From the IMG/VR virus record IMGVR_UViG_3300035190_001906, positions 1-58,751 of that record: a DNA stretch of 58,751 nt, one strand, 5' to 3'. Positions 21,301-43,825 of this stretch are shown here, piece by piece. Position numbers and translations under genes: made by a program. Below the pieces are notes generated by a model that was not told where the DNA came from, made no database searches, and saw only the letters and a program-made list of their open reading frames with translations. The stretch comes from a virus (lineage: Duplodnaviria > Caudoviricetes). Numbering within the stretch: position 1 is the first letter of the stretch; every line of letters starts with the position of its first letter.

Positions 21301-24300
21301 GAATAGTGCGACAACCGTTGCTAATGGTGTTTCAAACGCTGCTACGAATATAACGGCTGCTGCTAATGCTGTACAGGGGATTACCACTGGGGTTACAGAA
21401 CTTGGTAATAGTCTGACCAATGTTGGCGGTGAAATTGGTCAGACTACCACTGCGATCGCGGAAACAGCAAAACAGATAATTAATATATTCCGCATTGGGG
21501 AAGATTTGGGTCGTAAATTTGGGTCAGTTAGTGCTACTGCTTTTACATCAGTTATCAATGTTACAAGGGATTTGATTACTGTGTTTGCAGATTTACTAAA
21601 TAAATATGCAGTTCCTTTCTTAAATACTTTAGCCAGAATAGCTAAGTTTGTAGCTTACTTCTCGAAAGGTTTATTCACGGGATTATTCACAGAAATATCT
21701 AAAGTTACTCCTGCCTTCAAGGAGATTGGGAGAGCAATCCTCAAAATACTGGGGGCATTAAAACGACTCGCTCCTATTATTGCTACTGCGATCGCAGCGT
21801 TTTATGGGTTTAACGCTTTATCTCCTGTTGTTGATTTTATTGGTCATATTTTAAATCACTTTGATTTATATCCTGCCGCGATCGCACTTGTAACAGGCGC
21901 AATCGGAACATTAGTTTTAAATTTCAAAAACTTATTTGATACAACAAAAAGCTATACAGAAATTGCTGAAAGTTTAGGGAATAAAATTGGTGAGATATTC
22001 GGGGGGATGGTGAATCTAGCTATTAAATCTATTCAAACTATTGTCTCGGTTATTGCGGAGGTGTTAGACGCGGTTTCTAAAATACCCAACGCAATCCTTC
22101 ACCCTATTGAGACGTTTGAATCTGTGATGACAGGAGCGGGAGATGTTATTTCCGATAAGTTTGATGGGGTTACTCAAGGGATTGGGGGTAAGTTTCAGGG
22201 AATGTTTAATGGAATCAAGAAGCGTTTAGGTCTATTTGTTGAAGAAACTGAAGTTGAAGGGGGAAGCGTGGAACAAAACTTATCTAACGATCCTCCTGGC
22301 CCTACTTACATGATTCGTAAGAAGTGGTTTGAGATGTTGGATATGATCGGGGATCGAGTTGAAGATTTCACGTCCTTTACTAAAAAACAAGGACAGAAGA
22401 TTCAATCCGCAGTTACAATCTCTCCACAAGTATCTTTAGGTGATCAAACTCAATCTTTGCGGAATCAGTTTGGAGTAATTCAACAAATTCAACAGGCTCA
22501 GGCAGATAGCGTTCAAAATTTAGGTAGTAATGGATTGCGAGGAGTTTTAGTTTCAATCAATTCCTTGATGTCTAATTTTTCTGGTCAACTTAAACCATCG
22601 CTATTTCTTCTGAATGAATTTGTTGATGCGTTTGTTGATATTAAAACCTTGTTACCCAGTCTCCAAATGGAGATGATAAATTTCGGAAAAGCCGTCGCTA
22701 TTTCAAATTCAATTGCTGCTGGAACTTTTTCTGATTTAGCGATCGCAATGAATTCTTTTCGTTCTTCAAGCCTCCCAATGCTACCGTCCTCAGATCGTTC
22801 AAATCTCCCTGTGTTAGCATCGCCAGATCGTCTAAATTCTTATTCTTCTTATTCACAGTCTGATGTAATTGACGTAGAGTTTAGGGTACTTGGCACGGAA
22901 CCCATTCCCAATATTTCTGATGGTGTTCAAGGTTTGGATGGTGGGTTACAGGGATTGCGTGGAACATTAATTTCTGTAGGTTCCCTGTTATCTAACTTCG
23001 CACCCGAATTAGCAACTCCGCTTTTTGTCCTGAATGATTTTATTGATGCGTTTGTAGATATTAAAGCATTGCTTCCAACCCTGGAGGCGGGCGTATTGGC
23101 TTGGGGAAATTCGATCGCGGCTTCTAACTCATTCGTTGGCGGAACATTTACTTTACTCAAGGCTGCTGCATTAAAAGCCTATACAACCTTGCTTGTTCCC
23201 ATACTGCCATTCTTGCCAATTATTTTAGGGGTTATTGCTGCGGTCGGATTATTCTACTTAGCCTTTAAATCCAACTTCTTAGGAATCCGTGATTTAATCT
23301 ATGGTGTGGGTTGGGCATTTAAGAAGTTCTTTGGGGATTTGTTCGGAGGCTTCTTTGCTGCGATTGGTAGTATTTTTACTACGATTGACAGGGAAGTAAG
23401 AGCGATCGCTTCTGTCTTTGGGGAATTAGTTTCTACTGTTATCTCAATCTTTGACCCAATCCTGAAACTATTTGGTATTGATGTCGGCAACAGTGTTTTG
23501 AATCTATCTGATGTTTTATCGGCAGTTGTCAATGCTTTGCTGTTCCCGATTCGGATTCTAGTAAAATCCCTTAACTTCTTAATTACAACTATTTCCTGGG
23601 GAATCCAATTAATAGTTAAATCGTTGATTTTTACTGTCAACGTTATTAAAACGATTTTATCCTTTACCTGGGAACTCATAAAATCAATTCTAATTATTGG
23701 TGCAACTATAGGAGGGATTGTAGCAGTCCTGAACTTTGGTGCAGTTCTAGCTGGGATTGTCTCTGCTTTTGCAACGATAGCAGGTTTAATTGGCTCTATT
23801 AGTGTGATCGTGAGTGGAATAATTTCAGGGATTGTATTTGTAACACCCTTTTTGATTACAGGGGTTGCGTCAGTATTGACAATGATTGGAGGAGCTATTA
23901 CTGGTATTGCGATCGCAATAGCTCCAATTCTTCCTGTAATCCTCTTGATTTCAGGTGTTTGTGCTGTAATTATTGGAGTTGCTTTTGTTATCAAGAAAAT
24001 ATTTGAAGGAATTTGGTGGGTAATTTCTTCTGTTATTAACTCGATTTCATCTATTCCTTTCGTCGGTGGTTTATTTGGGGGTCAACCTAAAACAGAAAAA
24101 CCCCCAGGTTATGCAACTGGGGGTTTAGTTAAAGGATCGGGAACAAGTACAGGAGATCGTATTCACGCAAAACTCTCACCTGGAGAATATGTAATTAATG
24201 CCTCCTCAACTAAAGCCAATCTTCCTTTACTTGACGCAATTAATACAGATAAAGCAAGCGTAATATCAACTCCTCAAATCATGGCATCGCCTACATTTGC

Positions 24301-24502
24301 TCCTGTTCCCTTCTTCCCCCCAACTCAATCTGAATCTGCGGGAGGACAGGAATTTAATATTAATTTGAACTTTGGGGATATTATCGTTCAGGGTGAAACT
24401 GGAGAGGATGTTTATCGTGATTTCTTGAATAAGTTGCGATCGCCTCAAGCAAAAATGGAAATTCGTCAAATTATGCGGGAATTTGTTGAGCGTATGAGGT
24501 AA
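320..24502 (+). CDS. Giant phage tail tape measure protein (8060 aa), TP901-family core
   Basis: N-terminal TP901/PhageMin_Tail-type core (FDDSMASVGAVSGAT...LASAGELDLARSADI...AGIQADKAGTAARSAFLRL); long amphipathic helical tracts with spaced W/F; typical TMP C-terminal motif GYATGGLVKGSGTSTGDRIHAKLSPGEYVIN. Confidence 0.95.
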   Translation: MEETDRYGLFAQYDFELTGASLKNMASVRSQLSGLEKGIARVADAVNKSDFGRGLESASRRAQKSTSKAGTEIDELAQSLKLAEKRLKPLKREFRALRAEIRNVDFGGVEDKGKFRQAAREVKNYVATLKTLESQIEGNTAAEREFAATLKAQQRISSSKLEMQMQQRTAALSAQRIGEFSALRDIGRNALIPINQEIDKGVNLFSAFDDSMASVGAVSGATGKDLEKLRQTAKNLGASTRYTSFQAAEAEKYLATAGFKTAQILGTVSNALELASAGELDLARSADISSNILSGFRLKAEQLSSVVDTLALTSASANTNIEQLGIAMTYAAPPASLFGASIEETSAFIGVMSNAGIQADKAGTAARSAFLRLASPVKQGKVALDSLGISTIDSSGNLRNFVDLMSEISDKLALDPETLKKIQMAGGDLELIENAIPDSKKIEALKGIFGTTGISGATAALTQMAEFKRLSLANLASSSNTDQITQYFSQMGVKVAEGQDIFTAIGEQAPDYQTAASLITQANSQLMQSNLQTLSSLQRNKLYEYFKVSKDKDLFTEITRSTQDSQESVSRLNTAMSYLGVEMKVETRAARQMAKTMEDNLAGSFRALASAAEAVYINLIEPLSPILRLVINGITKVLLVVANAPYPIRLLIGSVIGLTAAMAATAVAVGTVGFFLFSFSQAAATAAIASQTLASGLIPLTGFFQSSMLGFIGTNPLETFFQYNTELASDFSLAWKRTSQKTVGGLGGIYKAVVTVTKATFLLSRAFLFSPITLWVGSFLLLNAFIEQAIPGFNLLGSALSLVTAPLGFIWGLIKGIGQSLMEVLGIVGGGTIGVLAAPIHTFTNALNNALETFKSFSDRGEELGLYLGRSIVAPIENAAILIDTIWQQVLGGIQLVSMLAVMWIQGAWQGFVDRFKQILQPVVTIALTIAQQLINALNHNPTERIPEAWHKAVTLIKGYLSDLLKFAQDIGNRIAETGIAIATYFQNLIQSIANTVGVIGTVFRIVGKGISLLFKAFVFIETKAIQGIFLLGEATIWLYKTLFTVGLQAIDILKKTYDQAFETIQIFSSAFGYGEFSPDDRAIARQTLILGTLNSIGAAFGLVAQGGRKVVDVFYSINSLVTQSIEKFDLLTLALMTAASLPMTLIGMLDEAAHLIIPELALLTQPGLFKALVYAMPGIIATATATGITQGFQKGFTNAIAKLPDQLIGTVDWVHSLIPQDLRDEINFALSDVFNRPVDTSAVYTQTRGFLDNQFRSFTDYLQQVGQTIKESSIAFREFLKPFLEYDILGVAVIPALTTIIPAFQAFWEVLKAPSVAGILKYLTFTVLPALGQTILAIAEYLNNIRLIVMLPFVSVAVRMIQILTEKIQSLIPQISNLRKTLLALSKTLGVLAVQGIASFLRTIPYVGTFLANNFLLIVDVIATSFPIYINLLKRFISVDMLKALIPAYAKVVKGIATGIIYMFEQGFKPLAQLLFKALNPFGTFKLLGLYFKTQGFKGLIKTPQLLDVFGVLNFINPFDVLFSVSKNVNAFVKLFTNSAEFSYDMVLKKQTMLFQSLKTNSPAFYKYMRMGALIPLEELLEQSPALVKFFVQLTRGLMMISPIVQIVGRIALAFTVWYQILKPVNEEMLSAIAATEVMGYKLKLLADTIRVLRFLVVDGSDAFIWFAFFVPKAINAVVVAFRVLGDTAYYVLHDVISLGILGFNALKITVINPLVVALIGATVALRAFLTVVQYALIFIRLKTQQYGDAIHKGFGAVMQQIASDVWGVISFLGIQLSNAFVLITSAVHRTWKSLTGLVGAIAHEIYLILVDPVGEFNRLLILLVGEVNNQIERTGTLLDRLPFKSLIVLVQKYWRELMFAGGIALQFVKALNPAVRISLLLIDLALALVNEYETGFKRLDAIIQALSHPIALLDSMIKGLVSFLQGGFIPLDAADWISKFIAGFIKMIPVVMGGFFVVALLIKRDVGGAFQLVSDKVLLFIGRIIQAVDAVKSLGYSISRIYKGDLVQMNLLNTIHGVRSKDNFGPIQNPFAYSQDPVQQQYAVGIGDQRKQKAQALLSYQKELDYMARQEQKRAERELIRRAKTSHPDLMNPEHSFYMDSPDQPGVKVRMSGAQVEKRRNRFGIEGYQVTQLGRSVMGAANQGYNAFRYGESYEAEEARKQAAKKSGLASVYQQYHGHDLKPDHLARLSATTNDEENIFTRNSLAPLLRSFQDFFENIHVKDFKVNDFYVGRLIDTKLKSGMMTPKSLDYQVESFLNPPVGMASLSSNHQEVLKKYVPTASIPTPWEHSEMGVKGLYGLDASRFEVERERMIREYKERLIKSLDDPKYSRTHFFGTDMGSGIGTSNIGGGSVNQFSSVSNELTRELNQIISNAFGKINSGTDKETATRLIKEFQLEFQQYQAKMMANNLPSTHRDQFLDFTEANSRAITMGDNFSGGKIATGFDVITQGITNVRLSANRASGELTDELGATRKSLMSLIVESTGIPKMLESLNINNLLGRQVRSTERKVNRNNRQAEKFKRLALYHRETGLRAFLANKGHTDSNPDTALTNYGTANNVGEDTISVLKNWRQTGKFQRELSSKEQGHITDFSTTIRTQLERYNETQHLDNKVNDLNSLARMMNRLALDKTKPDFNSGHVQDLVKFLEHGVMADDAKGNGIIQKRLNEILLSINSALGTGGSDAWTSTMLEEIKGNIGRNKEPKDKDNLLKIIRQVMLSDKKFDPDKFFVRADKDAIAKEMGFRYESQLRKIGETKLANPIQQLKQSVRDYIFQFEENMLTFHLENIDTLGRAKEFLLRRLKLEKLPFGNIAGRLDSIINAYSSFADKIKDQYLRLKGTGKENLGKMSTFFNERINFKSSIDRAISKFKTAKSGNIEGFLEMVSERQKTKVTRRLLQANFYGQMLTSGVDQADARKAMLALYKRQGDSKTLRQEMKGFDLEDTTIASIEKVLSQITNLKQDEISRHLMDKQGLSLKGMMPIQFYIAQEIPGILKGLFKDVRAITGAAIKVSKIDKIIGKIFTDVAAGLQQTIAPKMSSFVFRQARILSGLSLSVSNIIRRTFGENVIEKWFVGLSKTLFDSSIKLRADIKILGKDSKSYTAKLLDAGQFLFKTLSNGIISAAKALANPKSIWISIQGFFGKVKNFFGKLFPKRPGTLAEVDQQIARNQMIKTRSERLMGSKNLGETQKAKANKLYQSSNRELDRLQAERFALTSTPEAIAEKVMGLSHKITQKQSTALRRKSQIEAVEKPLSGLVDPEYKKSAQAYEQLQEKHRRIREQFKAENKQLIEGDIGGDHRAIPATLDAKRKQNKEIKGMDSSIEKLVKDLNKLRAKGLNNKAPEYTEILSKIKDLGIKRKKASYGKMSPEEIIEYDNIYDEMEVRIKKLGQLSKQIQKLEKQNPNLKQHRKKSYANTVGEIESQRSTLKSNYENTLAEIEKLKEQKKLISGRTSPFLVFMTDLAVLTQKVGRNIVDLATNQKSKKIDLFKQTAKDFMKFKEKVTPLVNELFAELMQKGANATARLSQYFENVARRSAIAWRRSQREVEGKTWPGWLKAAYRVGKTLVMTLNHGTTDVISEAWGRTRIAATENMQQMVESAHEAGTGIQRGLGQSLEKTEGFFSRLKAGLMDWAFPVRKINRQIEALKPAHQAAKESYESQKVYTFKDERKKQQKFGKFNSLNLQIEQLEAQKEAQQMMNRLGRFMGGLFPGRQFKTPQQYPKLARIALKRFHRRFNNFFGGLFKAKSKHLQLPAMNFSSPRINVGQSMEDASRRVVLAWKRAGREIRGKEWPTLIKAASRVGKTLVNFLNHGAADVTTDAWGRTQRTTAHSMHQMAETAHQTGGQIQSTFERAINKTIHLFGLLGKSVGNVGRAGMAIGGVVSATGFAAQSVFYSLSNIGLIDEETSQSLYKVTELISIFGAVTGLGTPLIMAFTSSVSALGTVAATVGTAVMGLGRAMSLAVGLGASPFAPLVLGIGAVSLAVFGLYKAFNANFMGIRDIIQNTLVVPIEFIQSAWEGFVAKFGGILTPIVKPALDIAQHLINALNHNPTERIPEAWEGAKERIQGSLTGLVDTGYRAGNQLNQALDPTKAGERKHLAAVVKEKLTGIKFEDQGYLDRFKQWFSSLQESITSVFSQNLITNNKLDIQTELMQKQLKIQEFQQAQNLWKTLSNRDRNTKIQGFLESKDWFQSIKGAVNKTPLKSLGGTFAGKQLTKVGGFLAMTMGLSGGPLLSLSLGIGAVTTALALLYSVFADDFGGIRTKLEKVIGKITQLFVMSVQAIKSAWVGFVSWFFDMPLVQAALVIAKGLINALNHNPTERIPEAWEGAITRIKEMFGWLIAPAQAIASNLTNLFSPVTQWFSGLFKPKQSQSTPIQKHQLINKESRSISSNSIWELLVAKIGLLIIKITEIVKSLNTYNQKFTQFNQRLDEKLNALIQNLPERMQGKRKSNSDIYTAIGFAVALKTSGFMSAMLGLFNITKEIYGLLAKGTIQQGIRNYVGSEKFTNFRDKAKSVSSKIKPFQPLLPITSFLVPQVAPITGLLSTFVLVMEDLPGYLEKFGKFIPWIAGLSGALLGVVTVLEILTPHLNVLGVIAGGIGFIFRGISGVITGFTDTLRNFNKESSRGDLSQQSSFFSDFVQTAGKISALGESLGTKFGEFLAFAFVDPIQFIMRAWLGFSEWFSNLPLVGHALNIATGLINALNHNPTERIPEAWDVATNRISGMLGDTVTVAQKTGQQMTTALSSGVDTVKSGAIAVRDNSVKTVRNVFLGDMSPFADLLDNIFRDNLRFSTQQIFSVLVSVLGVQNQILAETRKVVEQAIAINTTIQGLNQTVSGFNTSIDNTTDKSILDEVTKFNTNLAVVQEYLKPKPVVAPERGEKVAKSNANWFDHLFNNPMSEQIALRQNQLIQEMVNNSKSSSLTLSSEFSKYVFKEEKTGKTELTKEGQIYLETKIAKEYRDHEGAFSKEFVQYFATKYGRTKEQVYQEGLQKQPIIKEAIKALPETQKSLTEKQSTPGNKIAGGFNPLGQEGFLGIGGNQKGWRMDQTIYNSGTTLGGVERDLTSAANYIKGFGGNLLTSTLDLFQGGEASIRDKVTQQVSARQNQLIYEMANNSISESSALRSEFSKYITRGQYGNPELTQEGQTYLEKKLATEYRDRKGAFSNEILQNFAGKSGKTADQVHNIGLQGQPIIREAIKALPEKEKSLAEKIAPQIDRVVQSIDQSSKILSGIIQSIDQTSKILSDILNEFKIPDEIKPLVEIPIQSMPQSQSQPKQSLWDNSTNFVADLWGKVTSYFDGYYAKTKVPYKNPQKLTEPSIPDFKNNIVPYRPKSVGDVVNPIIKEKTSKLIPVVQQKASQIIPAAQQAVSGLAERWQKHRKNEPVVDDLVTNAETEWDNKESWWEKNFKSIRKSWGLTSSTVSKGIDKLVAQAPDQGYELQKGLAEGSPGPTFYIRKYWKKTINQVTDWMGDLAGSAAKTGISLAQSMGVGTVKTAIAITPFVSEATKNEAIQSIEAGIISIQDRYDYLEAQGFGNLGVLFEPGAAQVTDALQLLGGDIADFAKRSVNALLTLNFGELAQASKDFGGNLAFALKGLTAGFNSMGLSAIAAGAAVLTGMAPAIITIGAIAFGAAVILANFLGIRSILKGIIQILVATGKIVFFTFMAAGRVLKGFSLILRGLFGDSELIKQGIAEIKDAFQVLGQQLKLEFKAIAQGFLSIGEGLKIALVQIFPFLKQPLQDLKQWFDEFWSVFALSPERAGRMAAEALIDFVKNIFRAFNNLRLSVISTWQKMMVWFKIQLWQAKDWVVEAFRKMSQLDFSFLQDIPNALLNGFKWVAEKIPTLFQGTGDGILSRILNPIRDGFNAIAQFVKGFSDRINEELQLVFPGWMKSLGQSIIPLFDTLSNGAQGLRDAIVNLGAQWVKLALGFDLPIGYPFFEFLDSLVQRFQSTVVTIEKAWLKFFVNAGKLEWNQITEDIGNTLKSGFKSLATSVGQLWNQFWSTVLEAPTLKGKVDAFMSNFSFLSILNYVDDVAIAFDRLREKVGQVTSWLSNLITTWNQVTDKAPKLKLDIDTASLETKANNLIDNVQGKWNQLVKFFENPKWPTARQTWQGLLDGYGWLRSQFRTITDWFGRTPEMLAPFFNQLKLGADKVGEFLFNMELQWVKLVLAFNLPLPMFYQLFEFINAIPKLFKAGVIQVETSWTWLANEIANLNWKTLTHVWNGFSKLFGLLGTSLDFAENKWREFQSYILTSPQLLAPIFEKLRNGLQGFSGLIVRLFERWKNFATQFHLPHLEGLFTPLYALSEIFQMVLTGIETRWEKFATWLGTTELFSYVLGGLKNLSYAFSTVTGFIGRHWNTLVEFLRSTQLLVHLGNGIVLLVEFVDNLSTTISNLKQRWNTFLEANETTVKRIKQAWEGFTTSFKTILKPIVEFALDIAQKLINALNHNPTERIPEAWRKAVEFIQGKLSGLLDFAKDIGKQLVFALVGKDNVTGFFTRFNKELGESNSVVTEIKSNLRALFNDVKTVFSNVLSAISEISAIGLPLIRIMLESIKTEYTVYFNSIVTLFKNTKTYLATSFTNVLTGIANSIKFDLLIASLGEVKTQVDELFRTLSGVFSSFGQALVNFKFGSGRILKFIKSFGETAVNAVSGLFSAIGQQLGSAATEIKSGIGLAFSGFITQLRTLRTGIETTLTSISEYFSKFGAIKDKFIGFISVVFSGIKGFISGIVDYFKQFFTELVAAKNVGEAFAIILGGSLKGILNTVNFLSSAFVQLASIILHPIQSIKKFGEVTGLTDLLKLSIEGLTNVFKTLISVVGFFIRLAVDGLVLILKITVRLFQAILDPITAFRDLDKGITSVVRSLGEAAPGLKPLLDILDFTRKILQDLTINFAKFSAGFGVGFVKGFIGEMENLYNALIKFKDPLMTISEAFGKIFSFITESVPKAFSEISKLFTPVQKVVTEVNNGLTAVAPATTAIANSISTVAPATTAIASGMSTVANSATTVANGVSNAATNITAAANAVQGITTGVTELGNSLTNVGGEIGQTTTAIAETAKQIINIFRIGEDLGRKFGSVSATAFTSVINVTRDLITVFADLLNKYAVPFLNTLARIAKFVAYFSKGLFTGLFTEISKVTPAFKEIGRAILKILGALKRLAPIIATAIAAFYGFNALSPVVDFIGHILNHFDLYPAAIALVTGAIGTLVLNFKNLFDTTKSYTEIAESLGNKIGEIFGGMVNLAIKSIQTIVSVIAEVLDAVSKIPNAILHPIETFESVMTGAGDVISDKFDGVTQGIGGKFQGMFNGIKKRLGLFVEETEVEGGSVEQNLSNDPPGPTYMIRKKWFEMLDMIGDRVEDFTSFTKKQGQKIQSAVTISPQVSLGDQTQSLRNQFGVIQQIQQAQADSVQNLGSNGLRGVLVSINSLMSNFSGQLKPSLFLLNEFVDAFVDIKTLLPSLQMEMINFGKAVAISNSIAAGTFSDLAIAMNSFRSSSLPMLPSSDRSNLPVLASPDRLNSYSSYSQSDVIDVEFRVLGTEPIPNISDGVQGLDGGLQGLRGTLISVGSLLSNFAPELATPLFVLNDFIDAFVDIKALLPTLEAGVLAWGNSIAASNSFVGGTFTLLKAAALKAYTTLLVPILPFLPIILGVIAAVGLFYLAFKSNFLGIRDLIYGVGWAFKKFFGDLFGGFFAAIGSIFTTIDREVRAIASVFGELVSTVISIFDPILKLFGIDVGNSVLNLSDVLSAVVNALLFPIRILVKSLNFLITTISWGIQLIVKSLIFTVNVIKTILSFTWELIKSILIIGATIGGIVAVLNFGAVLAGIVSAFATIAGLIGSISVIVSGIISGIVFVTPFLITGVASVLTMIGGAITGIAIAIAPILPVILLISGVCAVIIGVAFVIKKIFEGIWWVISSVINSISSIPFVGGLFGGQPKTEKPPGYATGGLVKGSGTSTGDRIHAKLSPGEYVINASSTKANLPLLDAINTDKASVISTPQIMASPTFAPVPFFPPTQSESAGGQEFNINLNFGDIIVQGETGEDVYRDFLNKLRSPQAKMEIRQIMREFVERMR
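3119..19678 (+). repeat. Five exact copies of LINALNHNPTERIPEAW plus two variants within the TMP
   Basis: Exact copies at about 3119, 12437, 13238, 14405 and 19628; variants LVMTLNHGTTDVISEAW (about 11009) and LVNFLNHGAADVTTDAW (about 11726). Codons differ synonymously between the exact copies. Confidence 0.95.
15011..15940 (+). repeat. Duplicated hydrophilic domain of about 112 aa inside the TMP
   Basis: RQNQLIQEMVNNS...SEFSKY...ELTKEGQIYLE...QPIIKEAIKALPE (15011-15349) versus RQNQLIYEMANNS...SEFSKY...ELTQEGQTYLE...QPIIREAIKALPE (15605-15940). Confidence 0.9.
21205..21370 (+). repeat. Tandem Ala/Thr-rich repeats (VAPATTAIA..) in the TMP
   Basis: CTGTTGCGCCAGCGACAACCGCGATCGC occurs twice 42 bp (14 aa) apart, followed by degenerate copies. 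Confidence 0.8.
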
Positions 24503-24510
24503 TTAAAATA

Positions 24511-24541
24511 TTCCGTATCTACGGGAGGAAATATTTGGCAA
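24511..24541. promoter_or_regulatory. Palindromic operator-like site TTCCGTA-N2-TACGG(G)A, copy 1
   Basis: 24 of 31 nt identical to 41578-41608; both copies lie just after the stop codon of a structural gene. Confidence 0.45.
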
Positions 24542-24543
24542 AC

Positions 24544-24590
24544 AAAAACCCCATCTAGCCGGATTTGCGCTTGGGCTAAATGGGGTTTTT
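24544..24590. terminator. Bidirectional intrinsic terminator between TMP and the convergent micro-protein operon
   Basis: AAAAACCCCATCTAGCC...GGCTAAATGGGGTTTTT stem with A/T tracts on both sides. Confidence 0.75.
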
Positions 24591-24595
24591 AGGTT

Positions 24596-24715
24596 TTAGT
24601 TTGCTGATTTCTTGTAATCAGAAACTTTTTTGTAGAGCCACAAGGCTCCGATTACTGTGCCAGTCCAAAAGACGGGAGCAGCGATTACTCCGACCAACAT
24701 TCCTAATAAAAACAT
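24596..24715 (-). CDS. Hydrophobic micro-protein D (39 aa) MFLLGMLVGVIAAPVFWTGTVIGALWLYKKVSDYKKSAN
   Basis: Translated by hand; ATG preceded by GAAGGA; one TM-like segment and a basic tail; below the ORF-track length cutoff. Confidence 0.7.
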   Translation of the reverse strand: MFLLGMLVGVIAAPVFWTGTVIGALWLYKKVSDYKKSAN

Positions 24716-24758
24716 AGATTTTTTTCCTTCTTGATTTATGCGTGAATTTTGGTTTTGA

Positions 24759-24782
24759 CCTGACAACCGAGGGGCTACCAGG
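24759..24782 (-). repeat. Intergenic hairpin repeat (CCTGGTAGCC-CCTC-GGTTGTCAGG on minus strand)
   Basis: 10-bp stem with CCTC loop, 8 nt after a stop codon. Confidence 0.85.
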
Positions 24783-24790
24783 ATTTTGAT

Positions 24791-24877
24791 TTAGCGAGTC
24801 GCGTTGTATGCGATTGCACTCATTACGACTAGCCCGATAAAGGCCAATACGTTCGAGGCGAAAAGTATGATTTCCAT
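24791..24877 (-). CDS. Hydrophobic micro-protein C (28 aa) MEIILFASNVLAFIGLVVMSAIAYNATR
   Basis: Start overlaps the upstream stop (TAATG, translational coupling); single TM-like segment. Confidence 0.6.
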   Translation of the reverse strand: MEIILFASNVLAFIGLVVMSAIAYNATR

Positions 24878-25026
24878 TAAACTTCTACGAACTGAGTTTT
24901 GCGTTGTTTTCCGAAAGCCTTCTCTAAGGCTTTTTGTGCGAAGTACATTAGCGTTCCCACGATGGGGATTGCTATGGGCGCTATAATTGCGCCGAATACT
25001 GCGCCTGCGAAAGCTGCTAAAAACAT
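24877..25026 (-). CDS. Hydrophobic micro-protein B (49 aa) MFLAAFAGAVFGAIIAPIAIPIVGTLMYFAQKALEKAFGKQRKTQFVEV
   Basis: AGGAGA RBS before ATG; hydrophobic N-terminal half and basic tail. Confidence 0.75.
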   Translation of the reverse strand: MFLAAFAGAVFGAIIAPIAIPIVGTLMYFAQKALEKAFGKQRKTQFVEV

Positions 25027-25069
25027 TTGATTTCTCCTAAACTAAAAATAGTGTGTGTTTTGTTCGTAA

Positions 25070-25093
25070 CCTGGTAACTGAGGAGCTACCAGG
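25070..25093 (-). repeat. Intergenic hairpin repeat (CCTGGTAGCT-CCTC-AGTTACCAGG on minus strand)
   Basis: Same stem-loop, 8 nt after the stop of micro-protein A. Confidence 0.85.
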
Positions 25094-25101
25094 ATTTTGT
25101 T

Positions 25102-25212
25102 TTAACGAGCTAATTGAGTAGTAACCAATCCAATTCCGATTCCAATTAATAGTCCGATGACTTGGTAAGCTACTAAAGCTGTTAAAGTTGCTGCAAATAC
25201 TGTGAAAAACAT
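25102..25212 (-). CDS. Hydrophobic micro-protein A (36 aa) MFFTVFAATLTALVAYQVIGLLIGIGIGLVTTQLAR
   Basis: AGGAGA RBS; almost entirely hydrophobic, with GxxxG motifs. Confidence 0.75.
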   Translation of the reverse strand: MFFTVFAATLTALVAYQVIGLLIGIGIGLVTTQLAR

Positions 25213-25255
25213 TTGAATTTCTCCTAATTGTTTAGTTTGTGTTGCGTGTGTTGTA

Positions 25256-25279
25256 CCTGGCAACTGAGGAGCTACCAGG
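25256..25279 (-). repeat. Intergenic hairpin repeat (CCTGGTAGCT-CCTC-AGTTGCCAGG on minus strand)
   Basis: Same stem-loop, 10 nt after the stop of the 333-aa gene. Confidence 0.85.
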
Positions 25280-25289
25280 GTTTTTTGAT

Positions 25290-26291
25290 TTAGGCTGCAA
25301 CCATTTGGTTGTTAGCCCGAATGTCTTTGACTTGCCGCTTGATGCGGTTAATCAAAACATTTTTTCCCTCACCTTTTGGGGTGTTTTTTGGAGGGTGACT
25401 GCTCACCTTCTGGGGAGCTTTTAGGTGCGAGTTTAACGCTGCAATCATTTTCTTGATTGCTTCCATGTTTAGCTCTGTTAGCTCTTTTGTTAATGTCGCT
25501 TCGTCTAAGACGAATAACATTGACAGAGGATGATTGATGTTTGTAGGAGGAACGGGACTAGAATCAACCGTTTCTTCAACTTCATCTTCATCTTCGATTT
25601 CGATTACAACAGGTGTAACTTCTTTTGTAGGAGTTGCGATCGCTGCGGGACTAGAATCAACCGCAGTTAATACAACTTCTGTTTCAGTTGTTGTAACTGG
25701 TGTGGGTGTTGCGACTACTGCGGGGGCAGTAATTACAACTTCTGGAGTTGCGATAACTGTTGGTTGTGTGGTAGCGAGATCGACCTCGACCACTACTTCA
25801 ACTGGAATCACAGGTGTTTTTTTCTTTGAACTTACCAGGCTTAAAGCCCAGGTCAAGAGTTCAAAGGAAAGAATTTGGACAGCGCAAGCACCTATGTTTG
25901 CCAGGAGAATTACTCCTAGTTCTGCCACTCCTCCCGCTTGCCACATCGAGACGATCAAGGCGATCATTCCGCTTGTGGATATCAGGGTGTAACAGGCATA
26001 GTTGAATGCTACGAATGCAGCAACAACTGTTACTGCATAAACCGCTTTTATTGTCGCTATTGCGACTTTTTTGGCGATTTGGAAGGCTTGTTTTAGTGTT
26101 TTCTTTACAAAACCTTCTTTTTCTTCAGTTTGAGCTTCGGTTTTATTTGCAACTTGTTCTACCACTTGTGGAGGGACGGCGGATTCAACCACTTGTGGTT
26201 TTACTCCGAAAATCCCACCTACAAAGGCGACAATCTTGCTAACGACTTTTTTGCCGAAAGACTGAAAATTTGAAATAATAGATTTGAACAT
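25290..26291 (-). CDS. Hypothetical membrane protein (2-3 TM segments, Pro/Thr/Val-rich linker, small helical C-terminal domain possibly Rho_N/HeH-like)
   Basis: AGGAGAG RBS; hydrophobic stretch at about aa 78-153; low-complexity linker; C-terminal LTELNMEAIKKMIAALN...KNVLINRIK. Confidence 0.75.
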   Translation of the reverse strand: MFKSIISNFQSFGKKVVSKIVAFVGGIFGVKPQVVESAVPPQVVEQVANKTEAQTEEKEGFVKKTLKQAFQIAKKVAIATIKAVYAVTVVAAFVAFNYACYTLISTSGMIALIVSMWQAGGVAELGVILLANIGACAVQILSFELLTWALSLVSSKKKTPVIPVEVVVEVDLATTQPTVIATPEVVITAPAVVATPTPVTTTETEVVLTAVDSSPAAIATPTKEVTPVVIEIEDEDEVEETVDSSPVPPTNINHPLSMLFVLDEATLTKELTELNMEAIKKMIAALNSHLKAPQKVSSHPPKNTPKGEGKNVLINRIKRQVKDIRANNQMVAA

Positions 26292-26366
26292 TTCTGCTCT
26301 CCTTGTTTATTGTTGATTAGGAAGTAACAAATATTTTGTGGAGATTTGTTCTTTTCCTATATCATT

Positions 26367-26395
26367 AATATAACAAATTCTTATATAAAAGTCAA
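26367..26395 (-). promoter_or_regulatory. Sigma70-type promoter TTGACT-N17-TATATT for the 333-aa/micro-protein operon
   Basis: Near-consensus hexamers with 17-bp spacing. Confidence 0.65.
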
Positions 26396-26463
26396 GTATT
26401 TTATCACATTTTTATCAAATAAATCAATGTTTTTAATGTTAATTATTTGTTGTTTAGAACCCA

Positions 26464-26506
26464 TTGACTTTTAATATTATTGATAGTAAAATTCTATAGT
26501 TGAGTT
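26464..26506 (+). promoter_or_regulatory. Sigma70-type promoter TTGACT-N17-TAAAAT-N6-GTTGAGTT (motif copy 2)
   Basis: Near-consensus hexamers with 17-bp spacing; divergent from the promoter at 26367-26395. Confidence 0.7.
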
Positions 26507-26518
26507 AAAATAAATCAA

Positions 26519-26857
26519 ATGACCAAAAAAATTTATCGATCTGAAATTTACGAGATTCTAAAGCTACAAAAAAGATTACCTGGTATTATTTCCCAAGTAA
26601 AAGAAATCATGGAGAGTCTTGTAGATTATCCGTTTTCAGAATTAAAAAGTTCTAGTTCTGCCGGAGATCATTGCCTCAGAACATTTCATTTAGCGCATAA
26701 TATTACTTGTTCGCTAAACCACCTCAATGACAATATTAACTATATAAATGATATTGCCAAAGATGAGGACGAGGACGAGGATGAGGATGAAGATGATGAT
26801 GACGAGGACGAGGACGAGGATGAAGATGACGAGGACGAGGATGAAGATGACGAGTAA
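26519..26857 (+). CDS. Small helical protein with a 31-residue pure Asp/Glu C-terminal tail
   Basis: ORF has its own promoter and terminator; GAN codon run at 26762-26854. Confidence 0.75.
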   Translation: MTKKIYRSEIYEILKLQKRLPGIISQVKEIMESLVDYPFSELKSSSSAGDHCLRTFHLAHNITCSLNHLNDNINYINDIAKDEDEDEDEDEDDDDEDEDEDEDDEDEDEDDE

Positions 26858-26870
26858 ATAAAAATAGATC

Positions 26871-26906
26871 AAAAAAAGACCCGCTAAATTATAGCGGGTC
26901 TTTTTT
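26871..26906. terminator. Bidirectional intrinsic terminator
   Basis: AAAAAAAGACCCGCTA-aatta-TAGCGGGTCTTTTTT between convergent genes. Confidence 0.85.
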
Positions 26907-28371
26907 ATTTGTTCAAACGGTAAATTCCATGCTCAGAACCACCATAAAACCCGTTAACCGAATCAATATTATCCTCCCAACTGAAGGATGCTTTCGATGA
27001 AGAATTAGACAGAACAGTAGTTTTGTCCATCATGATTCCAATGTGTGCCATATCAAAACCAACCCAAATATCACCCGCGATCGCCTGATCTCTCGAAACC
27101 TTTTGCGCTCGACCCCCTTCCATATCCTGAACACAGGAAACCACAGAAGCCATCCCCGCTTCTCCCCCCAACATAGGTAGCCCAATAACTTGAATCACGA
27201 ATAAATTAACTGCCCAAGCACAGGCAACATTCCCCCCTCCTGGCCCCTCAGCAGAAGAACGTCCCTTGGCTGCAACGGCGGCATCATAAATCTTTTTATT
27301 CAACCCCGTTAAATCAGGTCTTTGATTAGTTCCTTGTGAAACATCGGGTTTATTGGCATCCCCTTTTAAAATCTGAGGAGTTCCCATTTTAGGATCTGGT
27401 TTATAAGCCTTTACATGAGCCTCCGCAGTATATCCAAAGATGAATAATACCGATTCCACTGTATAGGTATCATCTAAATCCTGCCCCAAACCCTTCATCT
27501 TAAAAGTAGTTTGAGCATCTAAATTCAAGATATCCGGTTGACCCGCCAAATCCAAAACCAAATCAGCCCGAATCGACTTATGAGCTTCTGCCGCATACAA
27601 TCCCAACGCATATTCCAAAGCAGATAATTGGGATGTTGGGTTTTGCTGAATCATTGTCTTGTGAGCAGCACCGCCCGTATCAAAATCATTTGCACCATAA
27701 GTACCAGGAAGGGGAATAGCACTAGGATCAATTCCAAACTTAAACCCCGCCTTCCCTCGTTCGATTGCTTCAAAAAATTGAGGACTAGCTGTAGCTTTAT
27801 GAATTAAATCAGGATGCCCAGCGTTAACAATACTCCGAACATTATCCCAATCTCCTTGCTCGGCGTAAGGACGCATATCATATCCCCCTGCTGATGGTTT
27901 GGGTGATGCACACCAATACCAACAGAAGATTTTTGCTGCAAGATTGGGTTCTAAAATTAAGTCGGGGTTAGCTAGGCAATCAATTTTAAAATATTCTTTA
28001 CAAGCCTCATAACCAGAGAGTCCTGTTAACTGAATAAACCCTCTACCTACAGGAGATGGTGGATTATCGTATGTAACCCAATCAACTACACCCCCTTCTT
28101 TTTTTGGTTCAAATCCACATTCAGCATATAAAGTCCCGCAGATAGCGATCAAATGATTAACGCTGGTCATCTGATTTTGAGCCGCTTCTCTAGCTAGAAG
28201 CGGAAAATATTTAACAATATTGTCTTTAAATTCAGGAAATACTTCCGCAACTTGCTGAACAACATTTAACCCAGAACTTTGTTGCTTATCCTCTGCTTTT
28301 TTACTATCCGTTGCTTGATTTGGCGTGGGAGTTGTTGTAGTATTTGTTGGCTTTATGGGGTTGTCAACCAT
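26905..28371 (-). CDS. Virion-associated lysin: GH19/lysozyme-like domain, middle baseplate-hub-like segment, C-terminal NlpC/P60-CHAP-like peptidase
   Basis: YAECGF..KEG and GRGFIQLTG (GH19 signature); C-terminal ACAWAVN...GDIWVG..AHIGI (Cys/His dyad). Confidence 0.75.
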   Translation of the reverse strand: MVDNPIKPTNTTTTPTPNQATDSKKAEDKQQSSGLNVVQQVAEVFPEFKDNIVKYFPLLAREAAQNQMTSVNHLIAICGTLYAECGFEPKKEGGVVDWVTYDNPPSPVGRGFIQLTGLSGYEACKEYFKIDCLANPDLILEPNLAAKIFCWYWCASPKPSAGGYDMRPYAEQGDWDNVRSIVNAGHPDLIHKATASPQFFEAIERGKAGFKFGIDPSAIPLPGTYGANDFDTGGAAHKTMIQQNPTSQLSALEYALGLYAAEAHKSIRADLVLDLAGQPDILNLDAQTTFKMKGLGQDLDDTYTVESVLFIFGYTAEAHVKAYKPDPKMGTPQILKGDANKPDVSQGTNQRPDLTGLNKKIYDAAVAAKGRSSAEGPGGGNVACAWAVNLFVIQVIGLPMLGGEAGMASVVSCVQDMEGGRAQKVSRDQAIAGDIWVGFDMAHIGIMMDKTTVLSNSSSKASFSWEDNIDSVNGFYGGSEHGIYRLNK

Positions 28372-28581
28372 AGTTTTTGCGGTAAAATGAACGGGTCGTC
28401 ACACAATCCAATAACCTAAAAAAAGGAATCCTAGTGACCCCTTTTTTTAGGTTTTGATTTATAGCGAATATTAACAAAACCCCAAGTTATCTTGGGGTGA
28501 CTTAATGTTTCTTCTCTCTTTTATTATGGCATACACAGCAAGAAAAAAGAATGACGAATTTCTCACGGCTTTAAAAACAAA

Positions 28582-42889: not shown

Positions 42890-42923
42890 CGCGATCGCTT
42901 TTTTTTGAAGATAGCGATCGCGT
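42890..42923. terminator. HIP1-armed hairpin
   Basis: CGCGATCGCT-N-AGCGATCGCG inverted repeat, intergenic. Confidence 0.5.
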
Positions 42924-43021
42924 CAATTAGTAATAAACAAGAAGGAGTTGAGAGATATCAGCAAACTAAAACAATGCACATTATCCAACAACTCCTTCAT
43001 CTTAGCGGATGGAGAAATATA

Positions 43022-43825
43022 ATGCAAGTATCTCGCCCAGCACTGAAATATTACGGGGGAAAATGGAATCTAGCCAATTGGATTGTTGACTTCTTCCCAC
43101 ACCACAACTGCTACGTTGAACCATTTGGAGGTGCAGCGTCGGTTTTATTACAGAAACCTCCATCTCCCCACGAATTTTATAACGACCTGGATTCCGAAGT
43201 TGTGAACTTTTTTCGGGTTTTGCGAGAAAATCAATCTGAACTAATCCAAAAAATAGACCTAACCCCCTACAGTCGGGAAGAATACGAACTATCCTACGAA
43301 CCAACTATTGATCCAATAGAAAAAGCGCGACGCTTCTACGTTCGTTCCTGGCAATCCCATAATCCATCGCGATTAAGTGGTTGGCGAAATTCCTTTAAAA
43401 ATAATCGCTCTCAATCCTTTGCTCAGGATTGGAATAGCATTAATCATTTGTATGCGATCGCGCAACGCTTAAAACAAGTCCAAATAGAAAACCGTCCTGC
43501 TTTGGAATTAATTAAGCGGGTTGACACCGAAGAAACCTTGTTTTATGTTGATCCACCGTACCTTAATGAAACCCGAACTTCAAGCACTCTGTATGATTTT
43601 GAATTAAAAAAAGAAGATCATATTCAGTTAGCAGAATGTCTAAACTCAATAAAGGGTATGGTCATTGTTTCAGGGTATGAACATCCTTTGTATAATGAAT
43701 TATATGCGGGATGGACAAAGAAGCAGGTAGCTACAAAGAAAAACGGTGGGGCAAATTCTATCGAGGTATTGTGGATATCTCCAAATATTCAATTACAACA
43801 AACATTATTTGATTTTGTTAACTAA
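43022..43825 (+). CDS. DNA N6-adenine methyltransferase, D12/Dam class
   Basis: YYGGK, YVEPFGGAASV, NDLD and DPPY motifs; probable start at 43022 after GGAGA (track start 42905). Confidence 0.92.
   Translation: MQVSRPALKYYGGKWNLANWIVDFFPHHNCYVEPFGGAASVLLQKPPSPHEFYNDLDSEVVNFFRVLRENQSELIQKIDLTPYSREEYELSYEPTIDPIEKARRFYVRSWQSHNPSRLSGWRNSFKNNRSQSFAQDWNSINHLYAIAQRLKQVQIENRPALELIKRVDTEETLFYVDPPYLNETRTSSTLYDFELKKEDHIQLAECLNSIKGMVIVSGYEHPLYNELYAGWTKKQVATKKNGGANSIEVLWISPNIQLQQTLFDFVN

Follow-up and report, generated by a model that had tools for sequence, protein, structure and literature searches.

An apparently uncatalogued structured RNA motif, without a match in Rfam and with covariation in its stem, separates the cistrons of tiny membrane proteins in a phage operon. 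Comparison of related loci shows that the coding-strand transcript has retained the predicted hairpin structure. In the same comparison, the differences between relatives consist of whole units, and their junctions lie at hairpins. With roughly even confidence, we read the hairpin as punctuation of the sense-strand RNA, acting in processing or stability, which also offers homology for the shuffling of orphan membrane peptides. The source is an uncultured, HIP1-rich, myovirus-like phage, and its host is probably a (freshwater) cyanobacterium.

The operon and its boundaries

The window, that is, the whole 58,751-nt stretch of phage DNA that was analysed, carries the operon on its minus strand. 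A sequence-only reading had described a promoter, a 333-aa ORF, four small ORFs and three repeats, and each was found where it had been placed. The features are as follows, in the order of transcription.

26367..26395, minus strand: sigma70-like promoter, TTGACT-17-TATATT with TG (consensus scan, 10/12)
26318..26359, minus strand: conserved 5' UTR stem-loop (RNAalifold, 4 loci)
25290..26291, minus strand: ORF of the 333-aa membrane protein (ORF list, hydropathy)
25256..25279, minus strand: hairpin 1, 10-bp stem and CCUC loop, 10 nt past the stop of the 333-aa ORF
25102..25212, minus strand: ORF B, 36 aa, single TM, SD AGGAG, starts MFF
25070..25093, minus strand: hairpin 2, 10-bp stem and CCUC loop, 8 nt past the ORF B stop
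24877..25026, minus strand: ORF C, 49 aa, single TM, basic C-terminal tail
24791..24877, minus strand: ORF D, 28 aa, single TM, coupled to C via a TAATG overlap
24759..24782, minus strand: hairpin 3, 10-bp stem and CCUC loop, 8 nt past the ORF D stop
24596..24715, minus strand: ORF E, 39 aa, single TM, basic tail
24544..24590, both strands: bidirectional intrinsic terminator, common to the operon and a convergent gene of 8060 aa

The operon is self-contained, bounded by a conserved sigma70-type promoter at one end and by a bidirectional terminator at the other. Both promoter hexamers were kept in 4/4 aligned loci, and the divergent promoter region had a mean column identity of 88% in four loci, compared with 35-50% identity between the large proteins. 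The stem-loop predicted in the 5' UTR has 13 pairs, one of which changed on both sides among the four loci, a weak signal. The terminator has U-runs and 17-nt arms that are 94% complementary, its folding energy being -26.5 kcal/mol on one strand and -24.9 kcal/mol on the other; it is also present in the relative L006. The convergent gene, a 24-kb tape-measure gene, is placed tail to tail with the operon. Upstream, on the same strand as the operon, lies a gene for a 488-aa peptidoglycan hydrolase (phrog_181 endolysin, E 1.1e-18; its GH19 match at E 2.6e-4 was below the cut-off).

Hydropathy divides the 333-aa protein into an amphipathic helix at the N-terminus, roughly three TM-like segments within residues 75-153, a linker rich in T/V/P/E and a helical C-terminal domain. 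The AlphaFold2 model was confident for residues 253-330 only. The protein belongs to an orphan family, with 23 proteins among 5.8 billion and 9 representatives among 1.84 billion, and it had no match in Pfam, PHROG, NCBIfam or PADLOC. Searches of 50,697 phage records with the protein (tblastn) and with the operon (blastn) gave nothing, and IMG/VR contained one relative only. A HeH/SAP-like C-terminal domain was considered and found to be unsupported: Pfam was empty for all 23 members, the best E value of the PDB profile search was 0.26, and Foldseek against PDB, with full and domain models, returned nothing at E up to 0.001. For ORF C paired with the large protein's TM region, complex prediction returned no verdict (score 0.00).

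Structure, strand and distribution of the hairpin

A search for the 24-nt repeat with up to 3 mismatches gave 3 matches in the window, where 0.01 were expected, and none of 100 shuffles gave 3. The three copies first described are present, but the real unit is longer, a family of ~57 nt together with a shared SD and ATGTTTTT. In the window, the distance from the stem end to the next ATG was 43 nt for all three hairpins, with an SD-like AGGAG or AAGGA located 7-9 nt 5' of each ATG. Across loci, the stem began 5-13 nt past the stop codon in 18/18 instances and an SD was found in 18/18, the stem and the ATG being 28-47 nt apart. On the coding strand, an almost invariant AAAU immediately precedes the stem; in window hairpin 1, the base ahead of the stem is C, not U. 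The three window hairpins folded on the minus strand at -11.3, -14.7 and -15.0 kcal/mol (z -2.7 to -5.1) and more weakly on the plus strand, at -7.8, -12.2 and -8.4 kcal/mol. All three were kept in both the MFE and the centroid folds of the 771-nt distal mRNA. Copies inside one phage are often identical, and recent duplication or gene conversion, in place of selection, could account for part of the conservation seen in the hairpin and its flanks.

Stem pairing on the coding strand was retained in 140/140 cells of the alignment (18 instances, 14 distinct rows, nine related loci). Two stem pairs are fully compensatory (C-G to U-A); in three others, G·U allows one side to vary. The observed covariation score was reached by 0/500 shuffles, and slid controls were paired in 10-47% of cells. 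All eight distinct 24-mers are fully paired on the coding strand; read from the other strand, five of the eight contain A·C mismatches. Wobble positions are always G·U on the coding strand, never the reverse. Mean dG was -14.9 kcal/mol for the sense and -10.4 kcal/mol for the antisense hairpin, the sense form being the more stable in 11 of 14 distinct rows and the antisense form as stable or more so in 3. The earlier statement that differences between copies preserve coding-strand pairing, through a compensatory change and G-U wobbles, was therefore borne out in every cell. Together with the lack of a U-tail on that strand, these features support its view of the hairpins as RNA structures and not coding-strand terminators.

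A U-tract had been described as lacking. This is correct for the coding strand only, with 1-3 U in the 10 nt past the stem in 14/14 rows, but the opposite strand carries U-rich tails, with 6-9 U of 10 nt in 14/14 distinct rows. Antisense termination therefore stays a rival, and we consider it improbable. The hairpins would then be intrinsic terminators of plus-strand transcription, which would block tape-measure read-through or end cis-antisense RNAs over SD and start, as in type I toxin-antitoxin systems. Besides the tails, the nearly invariant AAAU 5' of the stem speaks for such terminators, and variants of the AT type reach -15.5 to -17.5 kcal/mol on the plus strand, a fold as good as that of the coding strand or better. 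The convergent gene, however, is already ended by a strong bidirectional terminator. On the plus strand, 5/8 variants carry 1-3 A·C mismatches and window hairpin 3 is unfolded (z -0.38), and the wobbles are G·U on the coding strand only.

The toxin-antitoxin form of this explanation draws on the peptides themselves, which match type I toxins in size and hydrophobicity. Type I toxin peptides such as Hok, TisB, Fst and Ldr are single-helix, hydrophobic, shorter than 60 aa and equipped with basic tails. Unlike them, the peptides studied here are arrayed behind a large protein and have strong SDs, and no antisense promoter was detected by scan. Typical type I toxin mRNAs lack a strong SD, unlike the peptide genes of the operon. 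The scan of 24600-25300 was without a promoter-like site on the plus strand; the single perfect TATAAT, noticed by direct reading, is inside ORF C and is lost in L006.

Leaky terminators or attenuators of the coding strand, which without a U-tract would produce a step-down transcription gradient, are a poor candidate in our estimate. The hairpins are indeed stable, GC-rich and located just past stop codons, and the stem-loops of PeSLs (promoter-early stem-loops) are reported to lower downstream expression (PMC2839356). Against this explanation are the few U residues past the stem in all 14 rows, and the terminator scan missed the hairpins yet called the true operon end. We know of no work establishing U-less terminators for cyanobacterial RNA polymerase.

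Two other functions were rejected and a third was considered unlikely. Pairing of the CCUC loop as an anti-SD (CUCCU-AGGAG) would need a U ahead of the loop, which is present in just two variants, both from the window; the C- and AT-type variants have no complementarity. Stimulation of stop-codon read-through or frameshifting does not fit the post-stop frames, which are not conserved, one of them ending inside the stem. A DNA operator for a dimeric protein is the unlikely one, since it would not require the covariation seen at the inner positions of the stem.

A covariance model, run over 107,080 nt, detected only the copies in the operon (56-69 bits). In a 4.8-Mb HIP1-rich MAG, the phage contig was the only match (150 of 1429 candidates scored), and the 62.5-kb relative had 2 copies, both in the operon. 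Scanning of 185,579 species genomes for the GC-type pattern gave only the identical contig and one 20-bit chance match, and all eight metagenome matches were the same operon. The proposal that the hairpin might be a dispersed host repeat was thereby checked, and the copies were confined to the operon in the MAG, the relative and the species genomes. These searches show that the predicted hairpin is specific to this operon within the genomes searched. Rfam gave no match at the gathering score in the window, and at E up to 1 within 24450-26550 it gave one miRNA model only, away from the hairpins.

In the reading we favour, sense-strand punctuation, a repeated intergenic module would divide the polycistronic mRNA into translation units. 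The module consists, in order, of the stop codon, an A-rich tract ending in AAAU, the 10-bp hairpin with its almost invariant CCUC, an A/C-rich leader, a strong SD and ATG; within a unit, as from C to D, translational coupling would take its place. An RNase E-type endonuclease of the host would cleave within the A-rich, single-stranded tract. One end of the resulting fragment would be capped by the hairpin, so that mRNA half-life and dosage would be set separately for each unit. As a repeated sequence, the module would also offer homology, feeding unequal and inter-phage recombination and so shuffling the units. Cyanobacterial RNase E is described as cutting between genes, in single-stranded RNA, with a preference for A at position -3 and U at position +2 (PMC8682795). 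The hairpin flanks appear compatible with this preference, although the A(-3)/U(+2) signature is loose.

Intercistronic hairpins that set segmental stability include the RNase III sites of T7 early mRNA and REP-type stabilisers such as that of malE-malF. Like these, the hairpins described here are on the coding strand of a polycistronic mRNA, just past stops and without a U-tract. The classical RNase III site needs a longer stem than the 10-bp stem found here, and unlike REP/BIME elements the hairpin is not dispersed through the genomes searched.

Small genes and the exchange of units

Hydropathy indicated one TM-like segment in each small ORF. Differences between loci were enriched at third codon positions, and the SD sequences and reading frames were conserved. 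In pairwise comparisons, which are not independent, pN/pS was <1 in 61 of 62; the last pair had no synonymous difference. The values were 0.20-0.97 for ORF C, 0.33 for ORF E and its L013 homologue, and 0.22-0.87 for ORF D. The latter was conserved in 8/8 loci, and its third-position differences exceeded those at the other two positions in 21/26 pairs. This pattern of substitution indicates that the small ORFs are genuine genes evolving as proteins. They had been called unannotated, which holds for the 28-aa ORF D but not for B, C and E, which are called, though unnamed, in public collections. The absence of the 28-aa gene from the public gene calls examined illustrates the under-counting of micro-proteins. 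The RNA evidence was one 172-nt metatranscriptome contig over 25069-25229, covering ORF B (depth 3, one run), which may be DNA carry-over and cannot show processing, the uncovered rest of 24000-28500 being uninformative.

No holin, defence or toxin family in Pfam, PHROGs, NCBIfam or PADLOC passed the cut-off for the small ORFs. The best family match was that of ORF B to phrog_7006, of unknown function (E 0.0036). The ESM Atlas includes the ORF B sequence and had no usable neighbour for it. Mimics of photosystem or cytochrome b6f small subunits were rejected, as Pfam had no match at E up to 1.

Variation in peptide content between the repeats, in cassette-like units, had been anticipated and was supported by the relatives, which hold different sets with breakpoints at hairpins. 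L006 and L013 are 99% identical as far as hairpin 2 and unrelated beyond it. L014 corresponds to the window without unit B and with a chimeric leader, and P0031 encodes a natural B/C hybrid peptide in which the N-terminal 18 aa of ORF B recur (17/18). At least 7 peptide types were found across 10 loci. Homologues of ORF C follow the first hairpin in 8/8 loci showing that position, and the position of ORF E is occupied by unrelated peptides in relatives other than L013. Some breakpoints are located inside ORFs, not at hairpins.

The closest known arrangement is the PeSL cassette of T4-type phages (Arbiol et al. 2010, PMC2839356; Comeau et al. 2014, PMC4122927). There too, an A/T-rich stop region is followed by a stem-loop with G·T pairs and then by an SD and the start of a small ORFan. 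The repeats also lie beside variable small genes, with indel or replacement junctions at the repeats, as between L006 and L013 and between the window and L014. PeSLs differ in several respects. They have a sigma70-like promoter in the repeat, whereas the minus-strand scan of 24600-25300 detected none here (-10-only promoters would escape it). About 50 copies are dispersed over hyperplastic regions, compared with 2-3 in a single operon (58.7 kb and 62.5 kb), and their units are separate transcription units rather than cistrons of one transcript. Unlike in PeSLs, the stem sequence and CCUC loop of the present hairpin are conserved across phages with covariation. The comparison shows that PeSL-style ORFan shuffling exists beyond T4-type phages, in a promoter-less, intra-operon form.

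PeSLs are reported to act as exchange sites in T4-type phages (PMC2839356; PMC4122927), and it is conceivable, with a small chance in our view, that the repeat is a DNA-level site for recombination or exchange only, either as PeSL-like homology or as a single-stranded DNA hairpin recognised by a recombinase, the RNA fold being incidental. Unit indels and replacement junctions do fall at the repeats, the often identical copies within a phage are what gene conversion would give, and G·T pairs would also be tolerable in a DNA hairpin of the non-template strand. Plain homology, however, needs no pairing, yet pairing is complete via compensatory changes. The position relative to stop codon and SD is fixed, and breakpoints are partly inside ORFs. 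A weak further point is that neither of two partial phage records (35% and 46% complete) contained a tyrosine recombinase (PF00589). Integron cassettes have an integrase of this kind nearby and attC sites of 57-141 nt with R and L boxes, longer than the 24-nt hairpin, and the operon differs from them as far as these two records and the hairpin length show.

Possible roles of the membrane peptides

The peptides may be accessory factors in the host cytoplasmic or thylakoid membrane, expressed early or in a lysogen. No operon protein matches any family, and a membrane-accessory function is therefore argued from architecture and variability only. Superinfection exclusion or membrane modulation is favoured over the canonical holin or spanin roles in lysis.

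It is unlikely, but deserves consideration, that the operon is a module for lysis control, encoding a holin, an antiholin and accessory membrane peptides in ratios set by the hairpins; this question is independent of that of the hairpin. The 488-aa peptidoglycan hydrolase encoded upstream, on the operon's strand, speaks for a part in lysis. Holins are small, diverse membrane proteins and often orphans, but those characterised are longer than peptides of 28-49 aa. Searches of Pfam, PHROGs and NCBIfam gave no holin family at E up to 1. The hydrolase is separated from the operon by a bidirectional terminator and by a gene in the opposite orientation. It is also surrounded by structural genes and could be a virion lysin. 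Between the two phages compared, the hydrolase was 91% identical and the large membrane protein 50%, and the peptide set was different; these differences fit an accessory locus under diversifying pressure better than they fit a core lysis function.

T4 Imm is a small inner-membrane superinfection-exclusion protein that is reported to bind the tape measure protein (bioRxiv 10.64898/2026.03.06.709160). As in that system, small phage membrane proteins are involved here, adjoining a giant tape-measure gene and variable between close relatives. The peptides, at 28-49 aa, have no sequence similarity to such proteins. A bolder proposal, to which we assign a low probability, sees in the operon a diversity-generating repertoire of exclusion peptides resembling Imm, in which the hairpin serves as expression punctuation and as a built-in exchange site. 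Each single-helix peptide would act against competing relatives by blocking those parts of their giant tape measure protein that insert into the membrane, and the exchange site would let phages trade and stack units. The hairpin could also be a tag binding the mRNA to the membrane, because the peptides are too short for co-translational targeting. With one promoter and three identical-type hairpins in ~1.8 kb, the operon provides a test bed for micro-protein dosage and membrane action in cyanobacterial phages.

Organisation of the hairpin-punctuated operon

As shown by ORF calls, a promoter scan and a repeat search, the minus strand of the window, a whole IMG/VR entry (58,751 nt, provirus class, completeness about 35%), carries an array of micro-protein ORFs and hairpins behind a larger membrane protein gene. 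The array is real, and its promoter-like site, ORFs and three repeats lie where the sequence-only reading had located them.

Features of the operon and its flanks
26519-26857, plus: divergent ORF, 112 aa, with a long Asp/Glu run, transcribed away from the operon (region 26292-26518 lies between)
26395-26367, minus: promoter-like site, TTGACT-17-TATATT with TG (promoter scan)
26291-25290, minus: large membrane protein ORF, 333 aa (ORF call)
25279-25256, 25093-25070 and 24782-24759, minus: three copies of the 24-nt hairpin repeat (repeat search)
25212-25102, minus: ORF B, 36 aa (ORF call)
25026-24877, minus: ORF C, 49 aa (ORF call)
24877-24791, minus: ORF D, 28 aa, overlapping C through TAATG (ORF call)
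24715-24596, minus: ORF E, 39 aa (ORF call)
24544-24590, both: inverted repeat, 17-nt arms, U-runs on both strands (−26.5 and −24.9 kcal/mol)

The inverted repeat is the common end of the operon and of the convergent 8060-aa gene. The 24-nt repeat has three matches in the window at ≤3 mismatches, compared with 0.01 expected, and three were reached in 0 of 100 shuffles. On the minus strand each copy forms a 10-bp stem closed by a 4-nt loop (−11.3, −14.7 and −15.0 kcal/mol); plus-strand folding is worse. All three hairpins were retained in both the MFE and the centroid fold of the 771-nt distal mRNA. The repeated unit extends past the hairpin, taking in the stop codon and its A-rich tract, a leader rich in A and C, an SD motif and ATGTTTTT. 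A stem-loop with 13 predicted pairs, one of them compensatory, is conserved across four loci in the operon 5' UTR (26318-26359, minus strand).

In pairwise comparisons of codon alignments, D had a pN/pS of 0.22-0.87 over 26 pairs, C 0.20-0.97 over 27 pairs with a further pair undefined, E 0.33 over two pairs, and the MLTV type, a peptide class of the relatives, 0.23-0.55 over six; the pairs are interdependent, several of the loci being almost duplicates. The third codon position was usually richest in differences (e.g. 11/3/16 and 8/2/18), and reading frames, starts and SD motifs were conserved between loci. All the peptides contain a single TM-like segment, and a basic tail is present in most. 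Public protein collections list B, C and E as unnamed proteins; D was absent from those examined. The first 18 residues of one homologous peptide (P0031) match B (17/18) and the remainder is C-like, and it is thus a natural B/C hybrid. The family of the large membrane protein is narrow and orphan, with 23 members among 5.8 billion proteins and 9 representatives among 1.84 billion, and C and E have three clusters each. No operon protein had a match at a useful level in Pfam, PHROGs, NCBIfam or PADLOC. AlphaFold2 was confident only for the C-terminal helical domain of the large protein, and no significant PDB neighbour of this domain was found.

Structure and strand of the hairpin

Pairing was analysed in 18 hairpin instances (14 distinct rows), and standard pairs were found in 140 of 140 cells. 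Two stem pairs are changed on both sides, from C-G to U-A, and in three a single side varies by way of G·U, one of these, pair 6/19, being seen as U-G, U-A and C-G; the loop is CCUC in 17/18 instances. The observed covariation score and percentage paired were reached in none of 500 shuffles, which related sequences are able to beat without any structure. Stronger arguments for selection on the hairpin therefore come from the slid controls, with 10-47% of cells paired, and from the strand asymmetry. Each of the eight distinct 24-mers is fully paired on the coding strand; on the other strand five of the eight have one to three A·C mismatches. The sense hairpin was stabler in 11 of 14 rows (means −14.9 vs −10.4 kcal/mol for antisense). 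These comparative data support the earlier proposal that the repeat acts as a coding-strand RNA structure.

The accompanying claim that no hairpin has a U-tract stands for the coding strand, where 1-3 of 10 nt past the stem are U, but fails for the opposite strand, where 6-9 of 10 are U after every stem. AT-type variants of the hairpin also fold equally well there, and therefore the hairpins are kept as possible antisense-directed terminators of the opposite strand. That explanation is weakened by the A·C mismatches, by the presence of a strong terminator at the end of the convergent gene, and by the promoter scan, in which no plus-strand promoter-like sites were seen over the peptide leaders.

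As a coding-strand structure, the hairpin module may provide RNA punctuation of the polycistronic mRNA, with RNase E cutting in the A-rich single-stranded tract ending AAAU, beside the stable stem. We infer this role, as we do the peptide function considered below. Cyanobacterial RNase E is reported to favour A at −3 and U at +2 of single-stranded RNA and to cleave intergenic sites associated with operon discoordination (PMC8682795); the AAAU tract next to the stem fits this reported preference. The module is almost the same as the layout published for promoter-early stem-loops (PeSL) of T4-type phages, with a stop codon in an A/T-rich tract, a stem-loop with G·T pairs, an SD and a start (PMC2839356; PMC4122927), and recombination at the repeat is a further parallel. 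The module shows neither an internal promoter nor genome-wide dispersal, both of which define PeSL. Searches of article full texts yielded PeSL and RNase E work and no description of the motif or operon.

No Rfam family contains the motif. A covariance model built from the instances found nothing beyond the operon copies in 107,080 nt of window and loci, nothing else in the 62.5-kb relative, and nothing else among the 150 of 1429 candidates scored in the 4.8-Mb MAG G001. An exact-pattern scan of one genome per species (185,579 species) returned only the identical contig and a single Pseudomonas match, which scored 20 bits with the model compared with 56-69 for true copies. The dispersed host repeat that had been named as a refuting observation was not seen in the species genomes, MAG or relative, which stood in for the true host.

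Related loci and exchange of units

IMG/VR held one relative, L006, and a metagenome scan returned eight loci, all eight with the same operon. The window and eight non-duplicate loci share a constant order: the large membrane protein (333-373 aa in complete copies), a hairpin, C-type peptides (41-67 aa) with coupled D-type peptides (28-29 aa), a second hairpin and a variable tail. In the tail there is either an E-type peptide, one of the unrelated MLTV type (40-42 aa), or a set of three (42, 29 and 41 aa); locus L013 has an extra hairpin after E, and unit B was found in the window only. Stop-to-stem distance was 5-13 nt in 18/18 measurable instances, and stem-to-ATG distance was 28-47 nt with an SD-like motif ahead of the ATG in 18/18.

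Identity between the window and L006 is 91% for the hydrolase and only 50% for the large membrane protein, and the peptide sets differ. L006 and L013 are 99% identical through hairpin 2 inclusive and unrelated immediately downstream. Locus L014 equals the window minus unit B, and its single leader starts like window leader 1 and ends like leader 2. These comparisons support the suggestion that the units are cassette-like, and of the evolutionary consequences of the module, recombination at the repeat has the best support; some junctions lie inside ORFs, not at hairpins. The sole RNA contig found extends from ORF B across hairpin 2 into leader-1-type sequence, a weak indication of another unit arrangement. 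In alignment A7 the large membrane protein (25290-26291, minus strand) is itself mosaic, with 90 conserved N-terminal aa, three or more alternative TM cores, a T/V/P/E-rich linker that varies and contains internal repeats, and a C-terminal domain in two or three versions.

The divergent promoter region (230 nt) is 88% identical across four loci despite far more diverged coding regions, which suggests tight regulation. The 112-aa acidic ORF is conserved in L006; in L016 and L018 conservation was seen only for the promoter region and the beginning of the divergent gene. Possible roles of the acidic protein are regulation and DNA mimicry.

Possible peptide role, neighbourhood and host

We favour an accessory membrane role of the peptides over lysis because the operon owns a conserved sigma70-type promoter and a terminator, because its content is hypervariable between phages with nearly identical neighbouring genes, and because the 28-49-aa peptides are, to our knowledge, shorter than known holins. 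The window also encodes tail sheath, tube, fibre, adaptor and portal proteins. The plus-strand 8060-aa ORF (320-24502) matches PF10145 (phage minor tail protein, PhageMin_Tail; residues 230-418, E 2.6e-40), which identifies it as a giant tape measure protein of what would be exceptional length. Hydrophobic stretches are numerous in it, a NALNHNPTERIPEAW-like motif recurs, and L006 carries a homologous C-terminal part. An analogy is offered by T4, in which the small membrane protein Imm excludes superinfection by binding the tape measure protein (bioRxiv 10.64898/2026.03.06.709160). Here the micro-protein operon and the giant tape-measure gene are tail-to-tail neighbours, which is a lead towards an Imm-like exclusion role and not evidence for one.

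Upstream of the operon, set apart by a bidirectional terminator and the oppositely oriented acidic ORF, is a 488-aa peptidoglycan hydrolase (26905-28371, minus strand; phrog_181, E 1.1e-18). Placed among structural genes, it may be a virion lysin rather than an endolysin. It is two-domain: residues 108-190 are GH19-like, and the C-terminal third (321-487) resembles endolysins or 'gene D' annotations of Synechococcus phages.

The octamer GCGATCGC (HIP1) occurs 67 times in the window compared with 0.26 expected, a signature which we take to point to a cyanobacterial host; the phage host is probably a cyanobacterium. A contig identical to the window is present in G001, which is labelled Acetobacteraceae and has 1234 HIP1 sites compared with 12 for the reversed control; the label or the purity of this bin is doubtful. 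The HIP1-rich phage also carries a DNA methyltransferase gene on the plus strand (42905-43825; phrog_56, E 2.7e-82).
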